Source of the DNA: Dehalococcoidia bacterium
GTDB lineage: Bacteria > Chloroflexota > Dehalococcoidia > Plut-88900
Assembly (NCBI GenBank): GCA_965197585.1
Contig: OZ240215.1
Location: forward strand, 3,264,001 to 3,328,000
DNA length: 64,000 nucleotides
Direction: 5' to 3'
Of this stretch, positions 44,153-51,298 are shown in pieces. The position numbers and the translations under genes are program-made. The notes under the pieces were generated by a model. It saw only the letters and a program-made list of their open reading frames with translations. It was not told the DNA's origin and ran no database searches. Position 1 is the stretch's first letter. Each line of letters begins with the position of its first letter.

Positions 44153-44314
44153 TGACTGACCTCCCGGATTTGGCCCGTGTTTCGCTTACACCGTCTCGAC
44201 GTCCGGTAGTATAAGGCAGGACGTTGCGTTGCGGGTCACGCTTTTCCCTCACTGCACTTGATTTTCCAAAGGCCTCTTAGTGCCGTGGCCCTTGTCGTTG
44301 TATAATCTCCCCGA

Positions 44315-44389
44315 TCCCCGATAGCTCAATGGTAGAGCGAGCGGCTGTTAACCGCTAGGTTGCAGGTTCGAGCCCTGCTCGGGGAGCCA
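44315..44389 (+). tRNA. tRNA-Asn(GTT)
   Basis: Acceptor TCCCCGA/TCGGGGA, anticodon arm AGCGG-CTGTTAA-CCGCT, T-arm GCAGG-TTCGAGC-CCTGC, CCA; TATAAT just upstream. Confidence 0.96.
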
Positions 44390-44406
44390 ACCGCCTTCCA
44401 CGTGCC

Positions 44407-44673
44407 ATGTTCACCGTCTATGTGTTGCAAAGCTCGTCCACGCACAAGTTCTACACTGGACAAACTGGGGACTTGCAGCGCCGTCTTCTCGAGCATCAAT
44501 GCGGTTGTTCGACATATACAAAGGCCCGAGGCCCGTGGGTGTTGGTACACTCGGAAGACTGGGAGACGAGGAAGCAAGCAGTGGCCCGGGAGCGGTTCCT
44601 CAAGTCCGGGACTGGGCGGCACTGGCTCAAGCTCCATCTCAAAGGTAGAGCGAGTCCGCCCGAGGCGGATTAA
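44407..44673 (+). CDS. Small standalone GIY-YIG nuclease family protein
   Basis: VYVLQS...FYTGQT..LQRRLLEH...YTKARGPW...ARERFLKSGTGR. Confidence 0.9.
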   Translation: MFTVYVLQSSSTHKFYTGQTGDLQRRLLEHQCGCSTYTKARGPWVLVHSEDWETRKQAVARERFLKSGTGRHWLKLHLKGRASPPEAD

Positions 44674-44713
44674 CCGCTAGGTTGCAGGTTCGAGCCCTGC
44701 TCGGGGAGCCAAC
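44638..44713 (+). pseudogene. Partial tRNA-Asn copy with a palindrome replacing part of the anticodon arm
   Basis: 44638-44654 matches 44325-44341 (1 mismatch); 44670-44713 identical to 44348-44391; CGGCTG replaced by TCCGCCCGAGGCGGA; no 5' acceptor strand. Confidence 0.9.
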
Positions 44714-44753
44714 ACCCTCGCCCCTTCCTCTTGTGATCCTTAAGCCCTAACGC

Positions 44754-44789
44754 AATCGCCCCCCGGGCCCCGTGACCCGGCGGGCGATT
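44754..44789. terminator. GC-rich hairpin between convergent units (probable terminator)
   Basis: AATCGCCC-CCCGGG...CCCGG-CGGGCGATT; no clear U-tract. Confidence 0.5.
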
Positions 44790-44814
44790 CTTCGATCTCT
44801 ATCTTCGTCCTGCT

Positions 44815-47800
44815 CTAGCCCGAGAAGTATAGAACAAGCACCGCCAGCACGTCGTCCTTGCTGATCTCGCCGTCGAAGTAGTCGCTTACCGCTCGGATAG
44901 CTTCACTTCTCTCTATGCTCTCGTTCCTGTTGGCATCGTACTCGCTTAGCAGTTCCATTTGAGCCACACCCGAGCTCGTTGCCGCCTGCGCACTCTTACC
45001 AGTCCCGACTGCATCGTCGTAGCTGACCGTGGCCCGCAGGAATATGCCCGCGTCACTCTCTCCCGGCGTGTAGCTCGCCGACGTAGCTCCCTGGATGTCC
45101 GTCCACCCTGTGGAGCCGTTACTCGACTTCGCCCATTGCCAGGTTGCTCCCGTGACCCCGCCGTCGGGGTCCGACAGAGTTGCCGTGATCTCACTCCCGA
45201 CCTCCGGCGTCCTTGTCGAAAGCGTTACCGTACCGTCATCGTCTTCTGCGACTGCGGCTGCCGTCACGGCATTCGCGCTCTTCCCGGGGCCCACCGAGTC
45301 TGTGTAGCTCGCCGTGGCCCGCAGGTAGCTGCCCACATTGGCGGTCGTCGCCGTGTAGCTGTTGGACGTAGCATTCAATATGAACACCCAGTTTGACGTG
45401 CCGTTGCGGGACATCTCCCATTGCCAAGTGACTCTCCTTACACCGCCGTCGGGATCGTCGATCCTAGCCGTCACAATGTCCCCGGCTGTCGGCATCGTCT
45501 CCGACAGGGTCACCCTTCCGTCGTCGTCCAGTGCCACCGCCGCCGTCGTGACCGCTTCGGCACTCTTGCCTGGCCCCGCTGCATCTGTGTAGCTCGCAGT
45601 CGCCCGCAGGTAGCTCCTCACATCCGCCGCCACGGTGGTATACGTGGACGAATTTGCTCCTATTATTGTTCTCCAGTTCGTCGTCCCGTTGGAGGAGAAG
45701 GCCCACGTCCACGTGACACCTGTTACTCTGCCGTCGGGGTCCGACAACACCGCCGTTACCCTCTCGCCTACCTCTGGGCTCGAAGGGGACAGGGTCACCG
45801 ACCCGTCGTCGTCCTCCGTCACCGCCGCTGCCGTGATGACCTCCGCGGTCTTGCCGGCGCCCGCGGCATCGTCATAGATAACCGTGGCCCGCAGGTATTT
45901 GCCCAGGACGCCCGCAGCAACCGTGTATGTCGCTGAATTGGCGCCGGCTATGCTCGTCCAGTTGCTCGTGCCGTTGGAGGAGGTCGCCCATTGCCAGGTT
46001 GCTCTCGTGACCCCGCCGTCGGGGTCCGTCAGCGTAGCAGTTACCGTTTCCCCGACCGTCGGCTCCGTCGGAGACAGCGCCACTACCCCGTCGTCGTCCT
46101 CCACTACAGCCGACGTGGTTACCGCCTCTGCGCTTTTGTCCGTGCCGTCTCCGTCATCATAGCTCGCCGTGGCCCGCAGGAAGGTACCCACGTCCGCCTC
46201 AGCTGCCGTGTAGGTTGACAACGTGGCCCCCGGTATGTCCAGCCAACCCGAGGTACTGCTCTCCGAACTGGCCCACTGCCAGGTCAGGTTTCTTATGTTT
46301 CCGTCCGGGTCCGTCAACCTCGCCGTAACACTGTCACCCACTGCCACCCGGTCCGCACTCAGCGTCACCCTGCCGTCGTCGTCCGCCAGCACCGCCGCAG
46401 TGGTTCTCGCACTGGCGCTCTTGCCCCCGCCCTCGGGGTCCGAGTAGTAGGCCGTCGCCTGCACGTAGTAGCCCCTGTCCTCCGCATCGAGGATGTAGCT
46501 ATCCGAGTTCGTCCCGGGGATCGGCGTCCACCCCGTCAACCCGGTCTCCGACCTCTCCCACTCCCAGCTTACGCTTGTCGGATCGCCATCGGGGTCCGTC
46601 AACTCGGCAGTGATCCGGGCCCCGATGGTGCCCCGCGTGGGCGTCAGCTTCACCTCTCCCTCTTCGTCGACGTTGTACACGTCTACCGTCACGTCCAACG
46701 CGTCCATCTCCCTGCCGGAGCGCGCCGTCACCGTCAGCTCGTATACGTTGTCCTTGTCCGAGTCCGCGGGGGACTCGAAGTTGGGCGTCGACCTGAAGGA
46801 CAGCGCCCCGCGGCTGTTTATCGAGAAGTCGGAGGCGTCGGTTCCGCTGAGCCTCCAGCTGACGTTGCCGGAATTCGGCCCCAGCGCCGAGTAGTCCGCC
46901 ACCCTGTCCCTGCCCTTCTCCGGGAAGCTGATGCTTCCGCGTCCCACCGCCACCAGCCCCGTCCTGGACAGCGTCGGCGTCTCGTCCACGTCTATCACGT
47001 CGATCGTCACCCTGATTGTATCGGACCTGCCGGACGGGTCCACGGCCCTGACGGTCACGCTGTACCTGTTCTTGGTCTCGAAGTCCAACTCAGTCCCGGC
47101 CGCCACGCTGATTTGGCCGGTGCCCCGGTCGATTGTGAAGTAGCGTGTGTCGCCGCCACTCAGCGAGTACTCCAATGTGTCGCGTGTACCATTAGAACAG
47201 TCTTGGGGATCGACATCGCAGTCCACGGCCGTAACTGTGTCGCCCACGATGTTGTCGATTGCATCGTTGGAGAGTACATCCTCCCGCACTTCTTTCGTGA
47301 CGCTAGCGCCTTCGAACTCCGGAGCTTCGTTGTTTCCATCCTCCATTTCTACAATGTTCGCAGTCGGTTCTGATGCGACCTTTTTACTGCCTTCCCCGTC
47401 TGAGTAGCTGGCCACGGCGGTTAAAGTTGCCCCAACGTCGGTATTACCCGTAATTACCTTCGGAGTGTAGCGAGATGAAGTGGCGCCAGAGATTAAGCAG
47501 TCTGTATCATTGTCGACGGCGCAGGTATTAGTTGGTAAGCTGTCCGGATTGACGTTTCTGTACCACTGCCAACGAACGCTTTTTTCCCTGTCCGGATCGC
47601 TCAGGCTGGCCGTCAGCGGCGTCCTGACCTCCGGCTCCGTGTGCGACAACCTCACCGTTCCTTTCTCTCCCACGTTCTCAACGGTTATCTTCACCTTCAC
47701 AGAAGCCGTATTGCCCGCCTCATCGGCGGCCTGCACCGTGACTTCGTACACGTTGTTGCGGCCCGAGTCCGTCGCCGCTTCGTAGTCCGGCCCGCTCTTG

Positions 47801-50800
47801 AAAGTTAGAGTGCCATTGTCGAGGTTGAAGTCGTCGGCGTCCGTCCCGGCCAGCGTCCAGGTAAGGGTGGCGTTGTTGGTGCCTGCAGTATTGGGAGCTG
47901 TATCTTTTTCAGGGTCGTCGGCCAAAAAGGCGATGCTCAAGCTTGTAGTGGCGGCATCGGCGACCGATTCCCTATTACTGGAAACAACCAGCTCGGAGTG
48001 TGTGAATCCCGAGTCGAGGTCCCCTCCGGATGTTCCGGTTATATTGGCGACCGGTAAGGTCAGCACCGGAAGTTCGTTCACATCTTTGACGTTGATGGTA
48101 ACGGTTATGAGGTCCCTTGACTCGGCGCCTGTTGTGTCGGATGGGTCTCTGGCGGTAACCGTGACGGTATAAGACTCCTTTGTCTCGTGGTCCAAGTCTG
48201 TATCACGCTTGACCTTTATCTGCCCCGTTCTCTGGTCTATTTCGAACGAGGCGACATCGGTGCCACCTAACTCATAGGTCAAATTTTCCGGCCTCCCCCT
48301 GTCCCCAATGTCCGTAGCCGCAACCGGGGCGCCCACGTTGGTCCCCGCTCTAGCATTCTCGTTTACTTCCCTTGTAGTGGTTTCCACATCATCGCCGGTC
48401 TCCGGGTCCTGGAATTCGGGCGGACCCGATTCCTTCCACTGCGTCGTGTTGTTCGAGACGACATAGGCGCTCTTGCCTCCGTCATGCGCGTCCGTGTAGG
48501 TCACCGTCGCCCGCAGGTACATCCCTGTATCGTCATTTTTCGGGGTGTAGGTTGCCTGGCTCGCACCCTGTATGTCTGTGAATCCCCCGCTCCTGGATGA
48601 AGACCTGGCCCATTGCCATGCATCGCCGGATACACCCTCGTCGAGGTCCGTAAGGGTAGCCGTTAGCCCGGCCTCCTCCCTCGGCTGCTGGCTCAAGGCA
48701 ACCTTACCCTTCTCGTCCACGTTAATGATGGCGATCGTTATGTCCTCAGTGTCGGTGTGGGCGGTATTGCCGTCACTCGCATTCACTATAACCGAGTACG
48801 CATTCTCATCCTCGTAGTCTGGAGATTCTCTGAACCTCAAAACGCCGCGGACAAGCGTGAACTCGTCTGCATCGGTCCCTGTCAAGGTCCACTCTATGCT
48901 CCTTCCCTCGGGGTCATCCGCCCTGTACGTAGCTACGGTGCCCCTGCCGTTCTCCGCGTAGTATATGTACACGTCTCCCGACGTGATTGACGGCGCGTCG
49001 TCCACGTCATCCACCACTATGGTCAGGGAATGGGTGTCCCTTGCCCCGCTGGGGTCCTCCGCTGTTACCGTAACCCTGTAGCTGGACCTCTTCTCGTGGT
49101 CTAGCACGGCCCTCGTTTTGATCTGCCCCGTATCCTGCTCAATCGAGAAGGCCGAATCGCCGCCGCTGATTGAATACGTCAAATCATCGTTGTCCGGGTC
49201 CTCTGCCCTCACCTCCCCATCGACATTCTCTCTCACCGGCTCGTTCTCGCGTATGGTCAGACTGGCCGGTGCCGCGGTGAACCTTGGGCTTTGATTCCCA
49301 CCGGACGGCCGATCATCAACACTGGCCTTACTGTCAACAGACAATGTCTGCCTTTCGCCCGTTCCGTCGGTGTAGGTGACACTCACCTCCAACGTCCTGT
49401 TTATATCTGCTGTCTTTGGGGTATAGGCATTGGCCCTGGACTCAACGTTGGTGCTTATTTTCCAAGTCCAGATCAGGTTGCTTATCGGTGTGTCGGGGTC
49501 CGTCAAAGTGGGAGTTATTCTGGTCCCCACCTGCGGGTACAGGTTGGACACGGTCAATAGCCCCGGTTCATCCTCATTCTCGACGTGTACGGTCACGTCC
49601 CGGGTTGTCTTATTGCCTCCCCTGTCCGTGACCTCCACCGTCACCTCGTACACGTTGTCCCGGTCCGAGTCCGTCGGCGCTTCGTAGTCCGGGGCCTCCC
49701 TGAAGGTCAGCCGGCCATGCTCGTCGGCGAGGTTGCCGATGGAGAACCTGGCCGCATCCCGGCCCGAGAGCGACCACTTCAGAGACGCAGGGTTATCGCC
49801 GTCCGGGTCTTCGGCCTCATAGCTGGACACCTCCGTGCCAATGGACGTGTTCTCATCATAATCTACCGAAGTGCTTCCCGCCGTGATTATCGGGGCTTCG
49901 TCCACGTCCGTAACCGTGATGGTCACGCCTATTTCGGCACTTCCACCGGACGGGTCCGTAGCCTTGACCGATACCGAGTGTGTGCTCCCGCCCGTAGCTT
50001 CGTAGTCCAGCGCAGCCTTCACCCTTATCTGCCCCGTCCCGCTGTCTATGTCGAAGTTTCTGTCGTCGGCGCCCGACAACACGTAGGTCAGGGTTTCCTG
50101 CCGTCCGTCGAAGCCCGGGTCCGTTGCCGTCACCGGCGCACCCACCACCGTCCCCGCCTCCGAGTTCTCCGCCACGCTCCTGGTTGTGCGCGTTATAACT
50201 TTCCCATTCTCATCCAGGAATCTGGGAGCTTTGTTGCTGGGGTCCGCCTGCACCGGGTTGACCGAGATGGCCTCGGCCGTCTTCTTGGGCTCGCACGGCT
50301 CGCAGTGACCGTCTTGGTAGGTCGCCGTCGCCCGGAGGTACATCCCCACGTCGTCTTCCGTCGGAGTGTAGGAGGGCTCCGTCCCCTCCACTTTCATCGT
50401 CGTGCTTGCATCGTCTTTGACGTCCGTCCAGCCCCCCGTCGCCCGAGTCGAACGCGACCATTGCCACGCTGTGTTGGCATCGCTGGTCAAGCCGATAGTG
50501 GTGACGGGGAAGGTGCGCGTGCCTGTGACCCGTGGGCCGTCCGCGTCCGTAAGCGTCGCAGTTATATCCACGCTCTCCTGGGGCTGCAGTGTGGAGAGAT
50601 CAACCTCTCCATCCTCATCCACGTTCGTCACCGACACCCTTATTGTCTTGGTGACGGGCCGAATAACAGGACGTAGGGATGCTCTGTTAGTGTCAGTAAT
50701 AAAGTCTGCATCGGTGTCCGTGGCCCGGATCGTCACCGCGTACATGTTGTTTGTGTCGGCGTCCACCGGGGCCTCGTAGTCCGGCGTATTGACGAACGTC

Positions 50801-51069
50801 AGCCGTCCCTCGCTGATTTCAAAGTCTCCGGCGTCGGTTCCCGACAGCGCGTTCCACGTCACGCCCTTCTCCTCGGGGTCCAAGGCCGTCAACACGATCA
50901 CCGCCCCGCTCTCCTCCTCCGGGTACTCGATGCAGTAGTCTTCGTCGCACCGCGCCTGCCCCTCCCCCAGCCCCCCGCTCATCAGAAACACCGCCACCGC
51001 CCCGGCCAACAACACCAGGCTCAGCGCCCCCCGCCCCACCCATCCTTTTAATATAGACGAATGCATCAT
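44815..51069 (-). CDS. Giant secreted cadherin/Ig-repeat protein (2084 aa) with C-terminal EF-hand/dockerin-like module
   Basis: N-terminal signal peptide; repeated PDYE/LDYE, DPDG, NVDE motifs; six tandem ~95 aa DDDGxVTLS..WQW..YLRATASY repeats; ends YDANRNESIERSEAIRAVSDYFDGEISKDDVLAVLVLYFSG. Confidence 0.9.
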   Translation of the reverse strand: MMHSSILKGWVGRGALSLVLLAGAVAVFLMSGGLGEGQARCDEDYCIEYPEEESGAVIVLTALDPEEKGVTWNALSGTDAGDFEISEGRLTFVNTPDYEAPVDADTNNMYAVTIRATDTDADFITDTNRASLRPVIRPVTKTIRVSVTNVDEDGEVDLSTLQPQESVDITATLTDADGPRVTGTRTFPVTTIGLTSDANTAWQWSRSTRATGGWTDVKDDASTTMKVEGTEPSYTPTEDDVGMYLRATATYQDGHCEPCEPKKTAEAISVNPVQADPSNKAPRFLDENGKVITRTTRSVAENSEAGTVVGAPVTATDPGFDGRQETLTYVLSGADDRNFDIDSGTGQIRVKAALDYEATGGSTHSVSVKATDPSGGSAEIGVTITVTDVDEAPIITAGSTSVDYDENTSIGTEVSSYEAEDPDGDNPASLKWSLSGRDAARFSIGNLADEHGRLTFREAPDYEAPTDSDRDNVYEVTVEVTDRGGNKTTRDVTVHVENEDEPGLLTVSNLYPQVGTRITPTLTDPDTPISNLIWTWKISTNVESRANAYTPKTADINRTLEVSVTYTDGTGERQTLSVDSKASVDDRPSGGNQSPRFTAAPASLTIRENEPVRENVDGEVRAEDPDNDDLTYSISGGDSAFSIEQDTGQIKTRAVLDHEKRSSYRVTVTAEDPSGARDTHSLTIVVDDVDDAPSITSGDVYIYYAENGRGTVATYRADDPEGRSIEWTLTGTDADEFTLVRGVLRFRESPDYEDENAYSVIVNASDGNTAHTDTEDITIAIINVDEKGKVALSQQPREEAGLTATLTDLDEGVSGDAWQWARSSSRSGGFTDIQGASQATYTPKNDDTGMYLRATVTYTDAHDGGKSAYVVSNNTTQWKESGPPEFQDPETGDDVETTTREVNENARAGTNVGAPVAATDIGDRGRPENLTYELGGTDVASFEIDQRTGQIKVKRDTDLDHETKESYTVTVTARDPSDTTGAESRDLITVTINVKDVNELPVLTLPVANITGTSGGDLDSGFTHSELVVSSNRESVADAATTSLSIAFLADDPEKDTAPNTAGTNNATLTWTLAGTDADDFNLDNGTLTFKSGPDYEAATDSGRNNVYEVTVQAADEAGNTASVKVKITVENVGEKGTVRLSHTEPEVRTPLTASLSDPDREKSVRWQWYRNVNPDSLPTNTCAVDNDTDCLISGATSSRYTPKVITGNTDVGATLTAVASYSDGEGSKKVASEPTANIVEMEDGNNEAPEFEGASVTKEVREDVLSNDAIDNIVGDTVTAVDCDVDPQDCSNGTRDTLEYSLSGGDTRYFTIDRGTGQISVAAGTELDFETKNRYSVTVRAVDPSGRSDTIRVTIDVIDVDETPTLSRTGLVAVGRGSISFPEKGRDRVADYSALGPNSGNVSWRLSGTDASDFSINSRGALSFRSTPNFESPADSDKDNVYELTVTARSGREMDALDVTVDVYNVDEEGEVKLTPTRGTIGARITAELTDPDGDPTSVSWEWERSETGLTGWTPIPGTNSDSYILDAEDRGYYVQATAYYSDPEGGGKSASARTTAAVLADDDGRVTLSADRVAVGDSVTARLTDPDGNIRNLTWQWASSESSTSGWLDIPGATLSTYTAAEADVGTFLRATASYDDGDGTDKSAEAVTTSAVVEDDDGVVALSPTEPTVGETVTATLTDPDGGVTRATWQWATSSNGTSNWTSIAGANSATYTVAAGVLGKYLRATVIYDDAAGAGKTAEVITAAAVTEDDDGSVTLSPSSPEVGERVTAVLSDPDGRVTGVTWTWAFSSNGTTNWRTIIGANSSTYTTVAADVRSYLRATASYTDAAGPGKSAEAVTTAAVALDDDGRVTLSETMPTAGDIVTARIDDPDGGVRRVTWQWEMSRNGTSNWVFILNATSNSYTATTANVGSYLRATASYTDSVGPGKSANAVTAAAVAEDDDGTVTLSTRTPEVGSEITATLSDPDGGVTGATWQWAKSSNGSTGWTDIQGATSASYTPGESDAGIFLRATVSYDDAVGTGKSAQAATSSGVAQMELLSEYDANRNESIERSEAIRAVSDYFDGEISKDDVLAVLVLYFSG

Positions 51070-51283: not shown

Positions 51284-51298
51284 TCCGCCTTAGGCGGA
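51284..51298. repeat. TCCGCC-N3-GGCGGA palindrome
   Basis: TCCGCCTTAGGCGGA; same arms as 44655-44669. Confidence 0.8.

Follow-up and report, generated by a model that had tools for sequence, protein, structure and literature searches.

A 322-bp cassette with a single-domain GIY-YIG nuclease gene and a hairpin-bearing tRNA copy at the tRNA-Asn gene of a Dehalococcoidia bacterium

The tRNA-Asn locus and its nuclease gene

The stretch of DNA described here (the window) comprises 64,000 nt of a Dehalococcoidia bacterium (GenBank assembly GCA_965197585.1, contig OZ240215.1, positions 3,264,001-3,328,000 of the forward strand); all locus positions are given in window numbering. The only tRNA-Asn gene of the genome is followed in the window by an insertion of 322 bp, hereafter the cassette, which carries a gene for a GIY-YIG nuclease of 88 amino acids and a disabled copy of the tRNA with a hairpin in its anticodon arm. 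The same site is precisely empty in a member of the same genus, and related cassettes are strictly linked to tRNA genes, in the same orientation, in many bacterial phyla. The balance of the evidence leans towards a selfish element that is free of an integrase. Nine genomes of the genus were compared and are denoted G000-G008, G000 being the genome of the window. The features of the locus are as follows.

44297-44306, + strand: candidate -10 box GTTGTATAAT, recognized by eye 8 nt 5' of the tRNA, the same in 9 of 9 tRNA-Asn loci of the genus
44315-44389, + strand: intact tRNA-Asn (GTT), called by ARAGORN and by Rfam (RF00005, 71.2 bits)
44348-44391, + strand: first copy of a 44-nt direct repeat (from the anticodon TT to CCA, plus AC), matching 44670-44713 exactly with a period of 322
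44390-44406, + strand: spacer of 17 nt, too short for a promoter of its own; a decayed duplicate of the flank 3' of the tRNA copy (ACCGCCTTCC versus ACACCCTCGCCCCTTCC)
44407-44673, + strand: open reading frame (ORF) for a single-domain GIY-YIG nuclease, ATG start, 88 amino acids (PF01541, E 2.3e-11)
44640-44654, + strand: D-arm piece of the tRNA copy, CAAAGGTAGAGCGAG, aligned to the tRNA with one mismatch
44655-44669, + strand: hairpin TCCGCC-CGA-GGCGGA, 15 nt, standing where the tRNA has CGGCTG (anticodon stem, 5' strand, through the first base of the anticodon)
44670-44713, + strand: 44-nt repeat, second copy, which forms the 3' portion of the disabled tRNA copy (tRNA alignment and exact repeat)
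44392-44713 or, equivalently, 44348-44669, + strand: the 322-bp insertion, extra with respect to the empty site of G003 and equal to the repeat period
44755-44788, strand not assigned: GC-rich palindrome ATCGCCCCCCGGG...CCCGGCGGGCGAT, recognized by eye between the cassette and a convergent giant gene; also present after the tRNA in the empty G003, G008 and G006

A sequence-only reading of the window had described an intact tRNA-Asn, a gap of 17 nt, an 88-residue GIY-YIG ORF and a tRNA copy from the D arm to CCAAC, and this layout was confirmed by ARAGORN, Rfam, the PF01541 match and tRNA alignment. The alignment also bears out the structure proposed for the copy, in which CGGCTG is replaced by TCCGCC-CGA-GGCGGA while the 44 nt 3' of the hairpin are identical to the tRNA and a single mismatch lies 5' of it, in the D-arm piece (AA[T/A]GGTAGAGCGAG). 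As had been noticed, the tRNA copy encodes the end of the ORF: its D-arm piece, its hairpin and the TTAA of its anticodon loop supply the last ten codons (K G R A S P P E A D) together with the stop codon TAA. ARAGORN does not call the copy as a tRNA, and Rfam at E up to 1 does not either. ARAGORN found 49 tRNAs in the whole 3.43-Mb genome; the intact copy is the sole tRNA for Asn and hence indispensable. Because the 44-nt repeat stands at both ends, the boundaries of the insertion can be slid along it. The exactness of this repeat, together with 47 genomic copies of the hairpin against 1 for a reversed control, indicates that the arrangement is not due to chance. A tRNA intron (group I or other) was considered and rejected: the functional tRNA is uninterrupted, and no Rfam intron family matched 44200-44850 at E up to 1.

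The GTTGTATAAT box is likely to be the -10 element of the tRNA promoter, which would then also drive the ORF, and the palindrome at 44755-44788 is likely to be a terminator shared by tRNA and cassette, which would place the cassette between the tRNA and the terminator of the tRNA. The conservation of both elements suggests that the ORF is co-transcribed with the tRNA. Strict promoter and terminator scans of the locus called neither the GTTGTATAAT (TATAAT) box nor the palindrome, the latter being missed by the terminator scan because it has no T run. Public RNA runs contained 0.06-0.10 of the sampled words.

The nuclease has one Pfam domain, GIY-YIG (PF01541; 44.3 bits versus a curated cut-off of 22.6). 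Seven residues are invariant in 25 aligned sequences (Y5, Y16, G18, R26, H30, E62 and K66); all but K66 correspond to the catalytic residues of the family (two Tyr, Gly, Arg, His/Tyr and Glu). The AF2 model (pLDDT 83.5) has strands at residues 2-9, 15-20 and 44-52, helices at 23-32, 55-66 and 68-82, and a disordered tail; it shows the beta-beta-alpha-beta-alpha fold with one extra helix, in the order beta-beta-alpha-beta-alpha-alpha. The top Foldseek matches were 1zg2 (rank 1), HIGLE, Slx1 and I-TevI. The nearest solved relatives by profile were the UPF0213 proteins 1zg2 (E 4.7e-15) and 1ywl (E 7.3e-13), followed by SLX1 (E 6.8e-7). Over codons 1-76, dN/dS is 0.10 against the homologue in G005. 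Among Chloroflexota, dS is unsaturated in 6 pairs, for which the median dN/dS is 0.09; between the window and the other nine, dS is saturated. Invariant residues, fold and low dN/dS together indicate an intact, selected nuclease gene of a minimal, Slx1-like kind. The homing endonuclease model TIGR01453, with a cut-off of 56.05 bits, gave 15.3 bits and matched residues 3-30 only, and the 88 residues contain no linker or DNA-binding domain. In the protein tree the window protein belongs to a well-supported clade of 11-13 rows, in which every row with a tRNA in its available DNA has tRNA-Asn; all rows are from Chloroflexota, bar one Bacteroidota sister row in the 13-row set.

Empty sites, related loci and duplicated host DNA

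The genomes of the genus were searched with 1.3 kb around the site, and their tRNA-Asn loci were read. G003 has a precise empty site, where the tRNA-Asn abuts the flank that in the window comes after the tRNA copy; its upstream gene and promoter region are the same as in the window, with 89% identity, and the difference between the empty and the occupied site is 322 bp, close to the 320 bp that had been estimated. G005 has the same cassette at the site; identity is 94% for DNA, across the 1.3-kb query, and 98% for the protein. G004, G006, G007 and G008 have the tRNA-Asn without the cassette, so that the empty sites foreseen in relatives were found, and G002 gave no match to the 1.3-kb query. 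In G001 (locus L036, approximately 1367-1620) the tRNA is followed by 40 nt of flank, a tRNA copy without an ORF (from position 9 to CCA) and the flank once more. This solo copy carries TCCGCC-ACT-GGCGGA at the same place as the hairpin of the window, and its duplicated flank is diverged by about 25%. Both the loop and the length of the duplicated flank differ from those of the window, which points to two independent events at this one tRNA within the genus. The nuclease gene has no further close copy in its own genome.

Protein matches with E ≤ 3.4e-11 in 61 related genomes lie in eight places, all of which (8/8) adjoin a tRNA gene (Asn, Ala-GGC or Val-GAC). These loci include G005, G046 and G047 (each at tRNA-Asn), G012 (a tandem ORF pair at tRNA-Ala GGC) and G035 (two ORFs around tRNA-Val GAC). 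Among weaker GIY-YIG matches in the related genomes, 22 of 31 loci examined are without a tRNA. A wider scan, made with a profile from an 11-row alignment and restricted to one genome per species, returned 80 loci in Chloroflexota, Acidobacteriota, Desulfobacterota, Patescibacteria, Planctomycetota, Verrucomicrobiota, Bacteroidota and others. An intact tRNA lies at most 501 nt from the ORF in 66/80 loci, and on the same strand as the ORF in 66/66. It is upstream, as in the window, in 35 of the 66 and downstream in 31; the gap between tRNA and ATG is ≤20 nt in 19 of the 35 upstream cases. By anticodon the 66 loci fall into 16 types, led by Asn (26) and Arg-ACG (12) and followed by Pro, Gln, Val, Asp, Ser, Tyr, Ala, Lys and Met. 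Thirteen of the remaining 14 loci have no tRNA in the available DNA, nine of them ending at a contig edge within 640 nt of the ORF, and one has its tRNA 1,800 nt away. An exact partial copy of the tRNA of at least 10 nt is present in 64/66 loci, and of at least 15 nt in 60/66. In 41 loci the copy is split in the anticodon arm, and in 39 of these the split is marked by a hairpin of 5 bp or more. Tandem GIY-YIG ORF pairs occur in 7/80 loci as well as in G012 and G035. The expectation that homologues would routinely adjoin a tRNA and a hairpin-bearing copy, at different tRNAs and at times in tandem, thus held: 66/80 lie near a tRNA, and 43/80 have the TCCGCC-N2-4-GGCGGA stem.

No integrase gene was found in the neighbourhood of the cassette in the window, where adjacent ORFs are of the housekeeping type, in keeping with the original observation and with the same flanks being present in G003 without the insert. 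Elsewhere, 150 of 407 open frames of at least 150 amino acids were scanned, namely those of the 24 closest loci. An integrase ORF (PF00589) was found within 2 kb in 1/24 (L061); the other 23 have neither integrase nor transposase. The neighbours at the 24 loci are housekeeping genes (DnaJ, Hsp20, DAHP synthase and similar). In L061 a phage-type integrase ORF (525-1901) and a RepB-primase fragment (1-489) stand just upstream of the tRNA-Arg with its GIY-YIG cassette, and integrase and cassette at one tRNA-Arg are taken as two different elements that use the same tRNA. Two further observations concern the sampled loci. The nuclease proteins of L116 and L118 are near-identical (end branches of 0.011 and 0.026 in the tree), and the respective metagenome-assembled genomes are labelled Anaerolineales and Planctomycetota; this likeness reflects either recent transfer or a binning error. 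Metagenomic homologues (P0001-P0035) are mostly found on contigs of approximately 0.4-3 kb, lengths that would be expected if assemblies break at the tRNA repeats flanking a cassette.

The disabled tRNA copy carries, locus by locus, the polymorphisms of the local tRNA. At many loci with an upstream tRNA the flank 3' of the tRNA is also duplicated, to about the ATG, over 15 nt in L045, 37 nt in L048, 40 nt in L060 and L111 (including a terminator hairpin) and 44 nt in L086; in the window it is the decayed 17 nt. The 3' part of the tRNA and the flank are therefore host-derived, and the foreign part consists of the ORF core and the hairpin. The variable length of the duplication fits homologous recombination or repair (single crossover of a one-repeat circle, or break repair) and not a transposase with a fixed stagger.

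Four public runs with contigs of the DNA type were compared. In line with recombination through homology, a 352-nt contig of run X6 joins position 44669 to 44348, with 173 nt on its shorter side and 0-1 deviating letters; the cassette is there followed by itself, in a tandem array or a circle. The interior of the cassette occurs as a separate contig in runs of three further studies. In X3 and X6 the word depth of the cassette contig (44362-44713) stands at 4-5 times the value of the flanking contigs, and in X1 and X9 the two are about equal; contig depth is not copy number, and the excess in X3 and X6 could reflect extra copies or other carriers.

The hairpin at the cassettes and elsewhere in the genomes

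The hairpin of the window folds as a DNA hairpin of 6 bp (-6.4 kcal/mol, z -2.6). The 92.4 kb that lie no more than 500 nt from the ORFs contain 80 copies of TCCGCC-N2-4-GGCGGA, spread over 43 of the 80 loci, and the 197.3 kb farther out contain 4. The loops of the 80 copies comprise 22 variants, and the stem is found at tRNA-Asn, Arg, Pro, Val, Tyr, Gln, Met, Ala and Lys across several phyla. In other clades of the protein the stem is GTCGCC/GGCGAC (at tRNA-Pro and tRNA-Ala) or TCCCGAG/CTCGGGA (at tRNA-Val and tRNA-Asp). The hairpin types cluster on the protein tree, with the reservation that kin share labels. Other small GIY-YIG paralogues from the genus and the family lack the TCCGCC hairpin (0/9 loci). 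In some homologues the gene stands between two hairpins. In L007/L030 (G035) the T arm of the disabled copy is also replaced by a hairpin, giving CCCCGA-N5-TCGGGG twice, and in L060 and L089 the T arm is replaced by a second TCCGCC hairpin.

The tail RA(G/S)PPEAD of the protein is conserved among the Chloroflexota homologues and is the translation of D arm, hairpin and TTAA. Coding constraint was rejected as the cause of hairpin conservation: in the 31 loci in which the disabled copy precedes the ORF the same hairpin is non-coding, and the tail is disordered in the model. An origin as a P-nucleotide or snap-back palindrome was dropped upon inspection, as the arms do not complement the neighbouring tRNA sequence and a loop of 3 nt lies between them. 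A constant stem with a free loop looks like the site of a sequence-specific protein, unlike a merely structural or inactivating element. The sequence-only reading had left two roles for the hairpin, recognition and immunity; since the stem is kept across phyla and tRNA types, the loop is variable and the same hairpin is dispersed outside tRNAs, the pattern favours a recognition site over an immunity mark.

TCCGCC-N3-GGCGGA is present in 47 copies in the genome of the window, and 11 further copies have a 2-nt loop. Only the copy in the cassette derives from a tRNA; the distance to a tRNA gene is 171 nt for one other copy and 649 nt for another. Most belong to two composite repeat families, the first with about 18 copies by eye (CCCGAGGGGAGCCTG-hairpin-TCATTCC..(second palindrome)..GGAATCC) and the second with about 12 (GTGGAACATCCGCC..CTGAAAG-hairpin-G..). 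The 5' flank of the tRNA copy (GAGC..G) bears an apparent likeness to one repeat family (family A), on which no conclusion is based. A second hairpin of the window, TCCGCC-TTA-GGCGGA at 51284-51298, lies 6.6 kb downstream of the cassette in a composite repeat (...GGGAGCCAG-hairpin-TCATTCC...CCGGAAT...). It is intergenic, just past the start (51069) of the giant gene that converges on the cassette, an ORF of 2084 amino acids (44815-51069, - strand) with many internal repeats (DPDG..V....W.W units). Within the genus the hairpin was counted 89 times in G001, 76 in G004, 47 in G000, 47 in G005, 23 in G002, 22 in G003, 18 in G007, 5 in G006 and 3 in G008; G001, with the most copies, has no close homologue of the nuclease. 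The cassette hairpin of G046 is of another type, TCCTTC-N4-GAAGGA, and occurs in 99 genomic copies versus 0 for the control. The respective hairpins of G012 (12 versus 1) and G035 (7 versus 0) are also found elsewhere in their genomes.

Interpretation and relation to known systems

The combination seen here was compared with several described systems. Ssn is a single-domain GIY-YIG nuclease (CDD cd10448) that cuts single-stranded DNA (ssDNA) only and is encoded beside its cognate NTS/SRM hairpin repeat; cutting depends on the sequence of the stem and not on the loop, most ssn genes are flanked by hairpin repeats in a layout of hairpin, gene and hairpin that the authors note as insertion sequence-like, and Neisseria SsnA with the NTS repeats modulates transformation (Chenal et al. 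2025, PMC11893778, in the sections available). The cassette shares with Ssn the single domain of about 90 residues (here 88), the hairpin at the end of the gene and in many genomic copies, and the kept stem with a free loop. It differs in that its hairpin stands in a duplicated tRNA, in place of part of the anticodon arm, and in that the unit is an insertion polymorphism; tRNA is mentioned 0 times in the available text of that paper, and 12 of its 14 supplements contain neither the TCCGCC hairpin nor a tRNA link. T4 SegB is a free-standing GIY-YIG homing endonuclease in a tRNA cluster, which recognizes the T-psi-C motif of tRNA and spreads itself with neighbouring tRNA DNA (PMC2330249, as far as available). 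The cassette gene likewise stands at tRNA genes and shows the presence or absence at one site among congeners that is typical of homing (occupied in G000 and G005, precisely empty in G003, empty in four more). As far as that source goes, SegB is a multi-domain phage enzyme that cuts double-stranded DNA at a 27-bp site, whereas here a chromosomal catalytic core of 88 residues is accompanied by a conserved hairpin and a disabled tRNA duplicate.

The stand-alone bacterial Slx1-like/UPF0213 proteins were described as a minimal domain, a probable, vertically inherited repair factor with no assigned function (Dunin-Horkawicz et al. 2006, PMC1564403, in the portion available), and that portion mentions no tRNA or hairpin context such as the one found here. 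Members of this family (1zg2, 1ywl) are the best matches of the window protein in sequence and fold, and they share its minimal domain without auxiliary domains. REP elements and RAYT (IS200/IS605-like) transposases are discussed in the available text of PMC11893778. Like these, the cassette ties a small nuclease gene to a dispersed short palindromic repeat, with presumed action on ssDNA hairpins; its enzyme is a GIY-YIG hydrolase and not a HUH/Y1 transposase, and REP/RAYT systems are not known to nest at tRNA genes. In the full-text literature, which leaves subscription journals outside its coverage, no description of GIY-YIG cassettes nested at bacterial tRNA genes was found. Free-standing GIY-YIG selfish genes and Ssn-hairpin pairs are kinds already known, and it is the logic of tRNA nesting that is new. 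The cassette belongs to a widespread and apparently undescribed family of very small, probably selfish cassettes at bacterial tRNA genes.

The interpretation preferred here, to which slightly better than even confidence is given, is that of an integrase-free selfish cassette, a mobile unit of 322 bp whose Ssn-like single-domain nuclease recognizes the hairpin and promotes recombination via tRNA-derived arms. The nuclease gene would be transcribed from the tRNA promoter. The enzyme would bind the hairpin, most likely on ssDNA as Ssn does, and nick beside it; the tRNA-derived homology arm would thus have its edge at the nick. Such a nick could stimulate host homologous recombination between the arm and a tRNA gene, bringing the 322-bp segment in or out as a circle or tandem, with duplication of the tRNA part 3' of the anticodon and of some flank. 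Owing to that duplication one working tRNA would always be rebuilt and one hairpin-disabled copy left behind. The dispersed hairpin repeats may be additional substrate sites. Each of the checks made came out as the idea of a minimal selfish unit at tRNA genes had predicted, and that idea is accordingly supported.

Several findings weigh against this interpretation. The link between hairpin and nuclease is one of co-occurrence and analogy. The protein is at most a candidate member of the Ssn clade (cd10448), its nearest solved relatives being UPF0213 proteins. The published SRM search sequence is unmatched: it was found 0 times in 44201-44800 and within 45 nt of 0/47 hairpins, and its 32 matches in the genome compare with 33 for the control. 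Hairpin number in the genus is independent of the ORF, as G001 (89) and G004 (76) have no close ORF and G000 and G005 have 47 each, and the hairpin of G047 is not enriched in its genome (3 versus 2 for the control). Four of the 80 loci have full flanks and no tRNA. The tandem or circular junction is based on one assembled contig of one run, and the depth excess in X3 and X6 is unusable as copy number. In L060 and L111 the duplicated flank places the terminator of the tRNA between tRNA and ORF, which argues against obligatory co-transcription. The single cassette in its own genome means that activity may be rare or past.

Two other explanations are regarded as improbable, to about the same degree. 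Under classical homing, the nuclease would cut the anticodon-arm region of the intact tRNA gene in cassette-free genomes, repair would copy the cassette, and the hairpin would be an immunity mark that destroys the target in the spare copy. Empty and occupied states of the same site, breaks in the tRNA copies that always fall within the anticodon arm, and the recognition of a tRNA motif by SegB (PMC2330249, as available) agree with this. The intact tRNA regenerated beside the gene would, however, retain the presumed target, and an immunity mark need not hold one stem over 43 loci, several phyla and several tRNA types, nor be dispersed outside tRNAs. A protein of 88 residues without a DNA-binding domain, far below the TIGR01453 cut-off, and with relatives at 16 anticodon types does not suit homing either. 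Alternatively, the gene might encode a resident, non-mobile host nuclease of the Ssn type that acts on the genomic hairpin repeats, for example modulating uptake or recombination of ssDNA, and is parked behind the tRNA promoter with the tRNA copy as a by-product of local duplication. The genome-wide abundance of the repeats, the single cassette per genome, the purifying selection and the role of SsnA and NTS in Neisseria transformation (from the available part of PMC11893778) are all compatible with such a factor. It leaves the precise presence or absence of the unit in congeners and the independent event in G001 unaccounted for, as well as the recurrence of one architecture in many phyla and at 16 anticodon types, the tandem copies and the lack of relation between hairpin counts and ORF; moreover, a parked gene would not need a disabled tRNA copy, yet 60/66 loci have one.

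A device at the RNA level, in which tRNA-processing enzymes cut a transcript of tRNA, ORF and tRNA copy and the hairpin-bearing tRNA-like end stabilizes or releases the mRNA, is considered very unlikely as an explanation of the unit. It would suit the very short gaps between tRNA and ATG and the uniform co-orientation. Against it, the copy has no 5' acceptor strand, is not tRNA-like to Rfam or ARAGORN, folds no better than shuffles (z -1.0) and lies upstream of the ORF in 31 loci, and the insertion polymorphism and the dispersed hairpins would be left unexplained. As far as expression goes, such a device is not exclusive of the selfish cassette.

Genes for tRNAs are common attachment sites of integrases, and the att duplication of the 3' part of the tRNA regenerates an intact tRNA. 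The cassette resembles such elements in being inserted at a tRNA gene that is made whole by duplication of its 3' part; it differs in having no recombinase, a size of 322 bp with one 88-residue ORF, and a duplication that is variable, includes host flank and reaches the D arm with a hairpin in it, unlike att repeats. A remnant of a larger integrase island at tRNA-Asn is therefore rejected as already contradicted, despite the common use of tRNA genes as attachment sites and the PF00589 integrase of L061: the window locus and 23 of the 24 closest loci lack an integrase, and the empty site of G003 differs by exactly 322 bp.

A bolder reading, put forward tentatively and with doubt, would regard the cassettes as a distinct class of autonomous mobile elements, possibly the smallest in bacteria (about 320 bp). 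Such an element would consist of a bare GIY-YIG domain and a 15-nt hairpin, with the disabled tRNA copy as a portable homology arm; a nick in ssDNA at the hairpin would let host recombination insert or excise the circle, and hairpins shed into the genome would seed REP-like families. If this were true, the large, stand-alone Slx1/UPF0213-type bacterial family of unknown function would be largely selfish.

The preferred interpretation, if correct, would give minimal GIY-YIG nucleases, which are very widespread and without clear function, a concrete role in selfish spread at tRNA genes, and would link their family to the recently described, ssDNA-specific Ssn enzymes. It would account for many 'broken' or duplicated tRNA genes, as well as for short contig breaks in metagenome assemblies, and would offer a candidate origin for some families of short palindromic repeats. 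Each pair of nuclease and hairpin is a candidate sequence-specific cutter of ssDNA and, as such, of practical interest.

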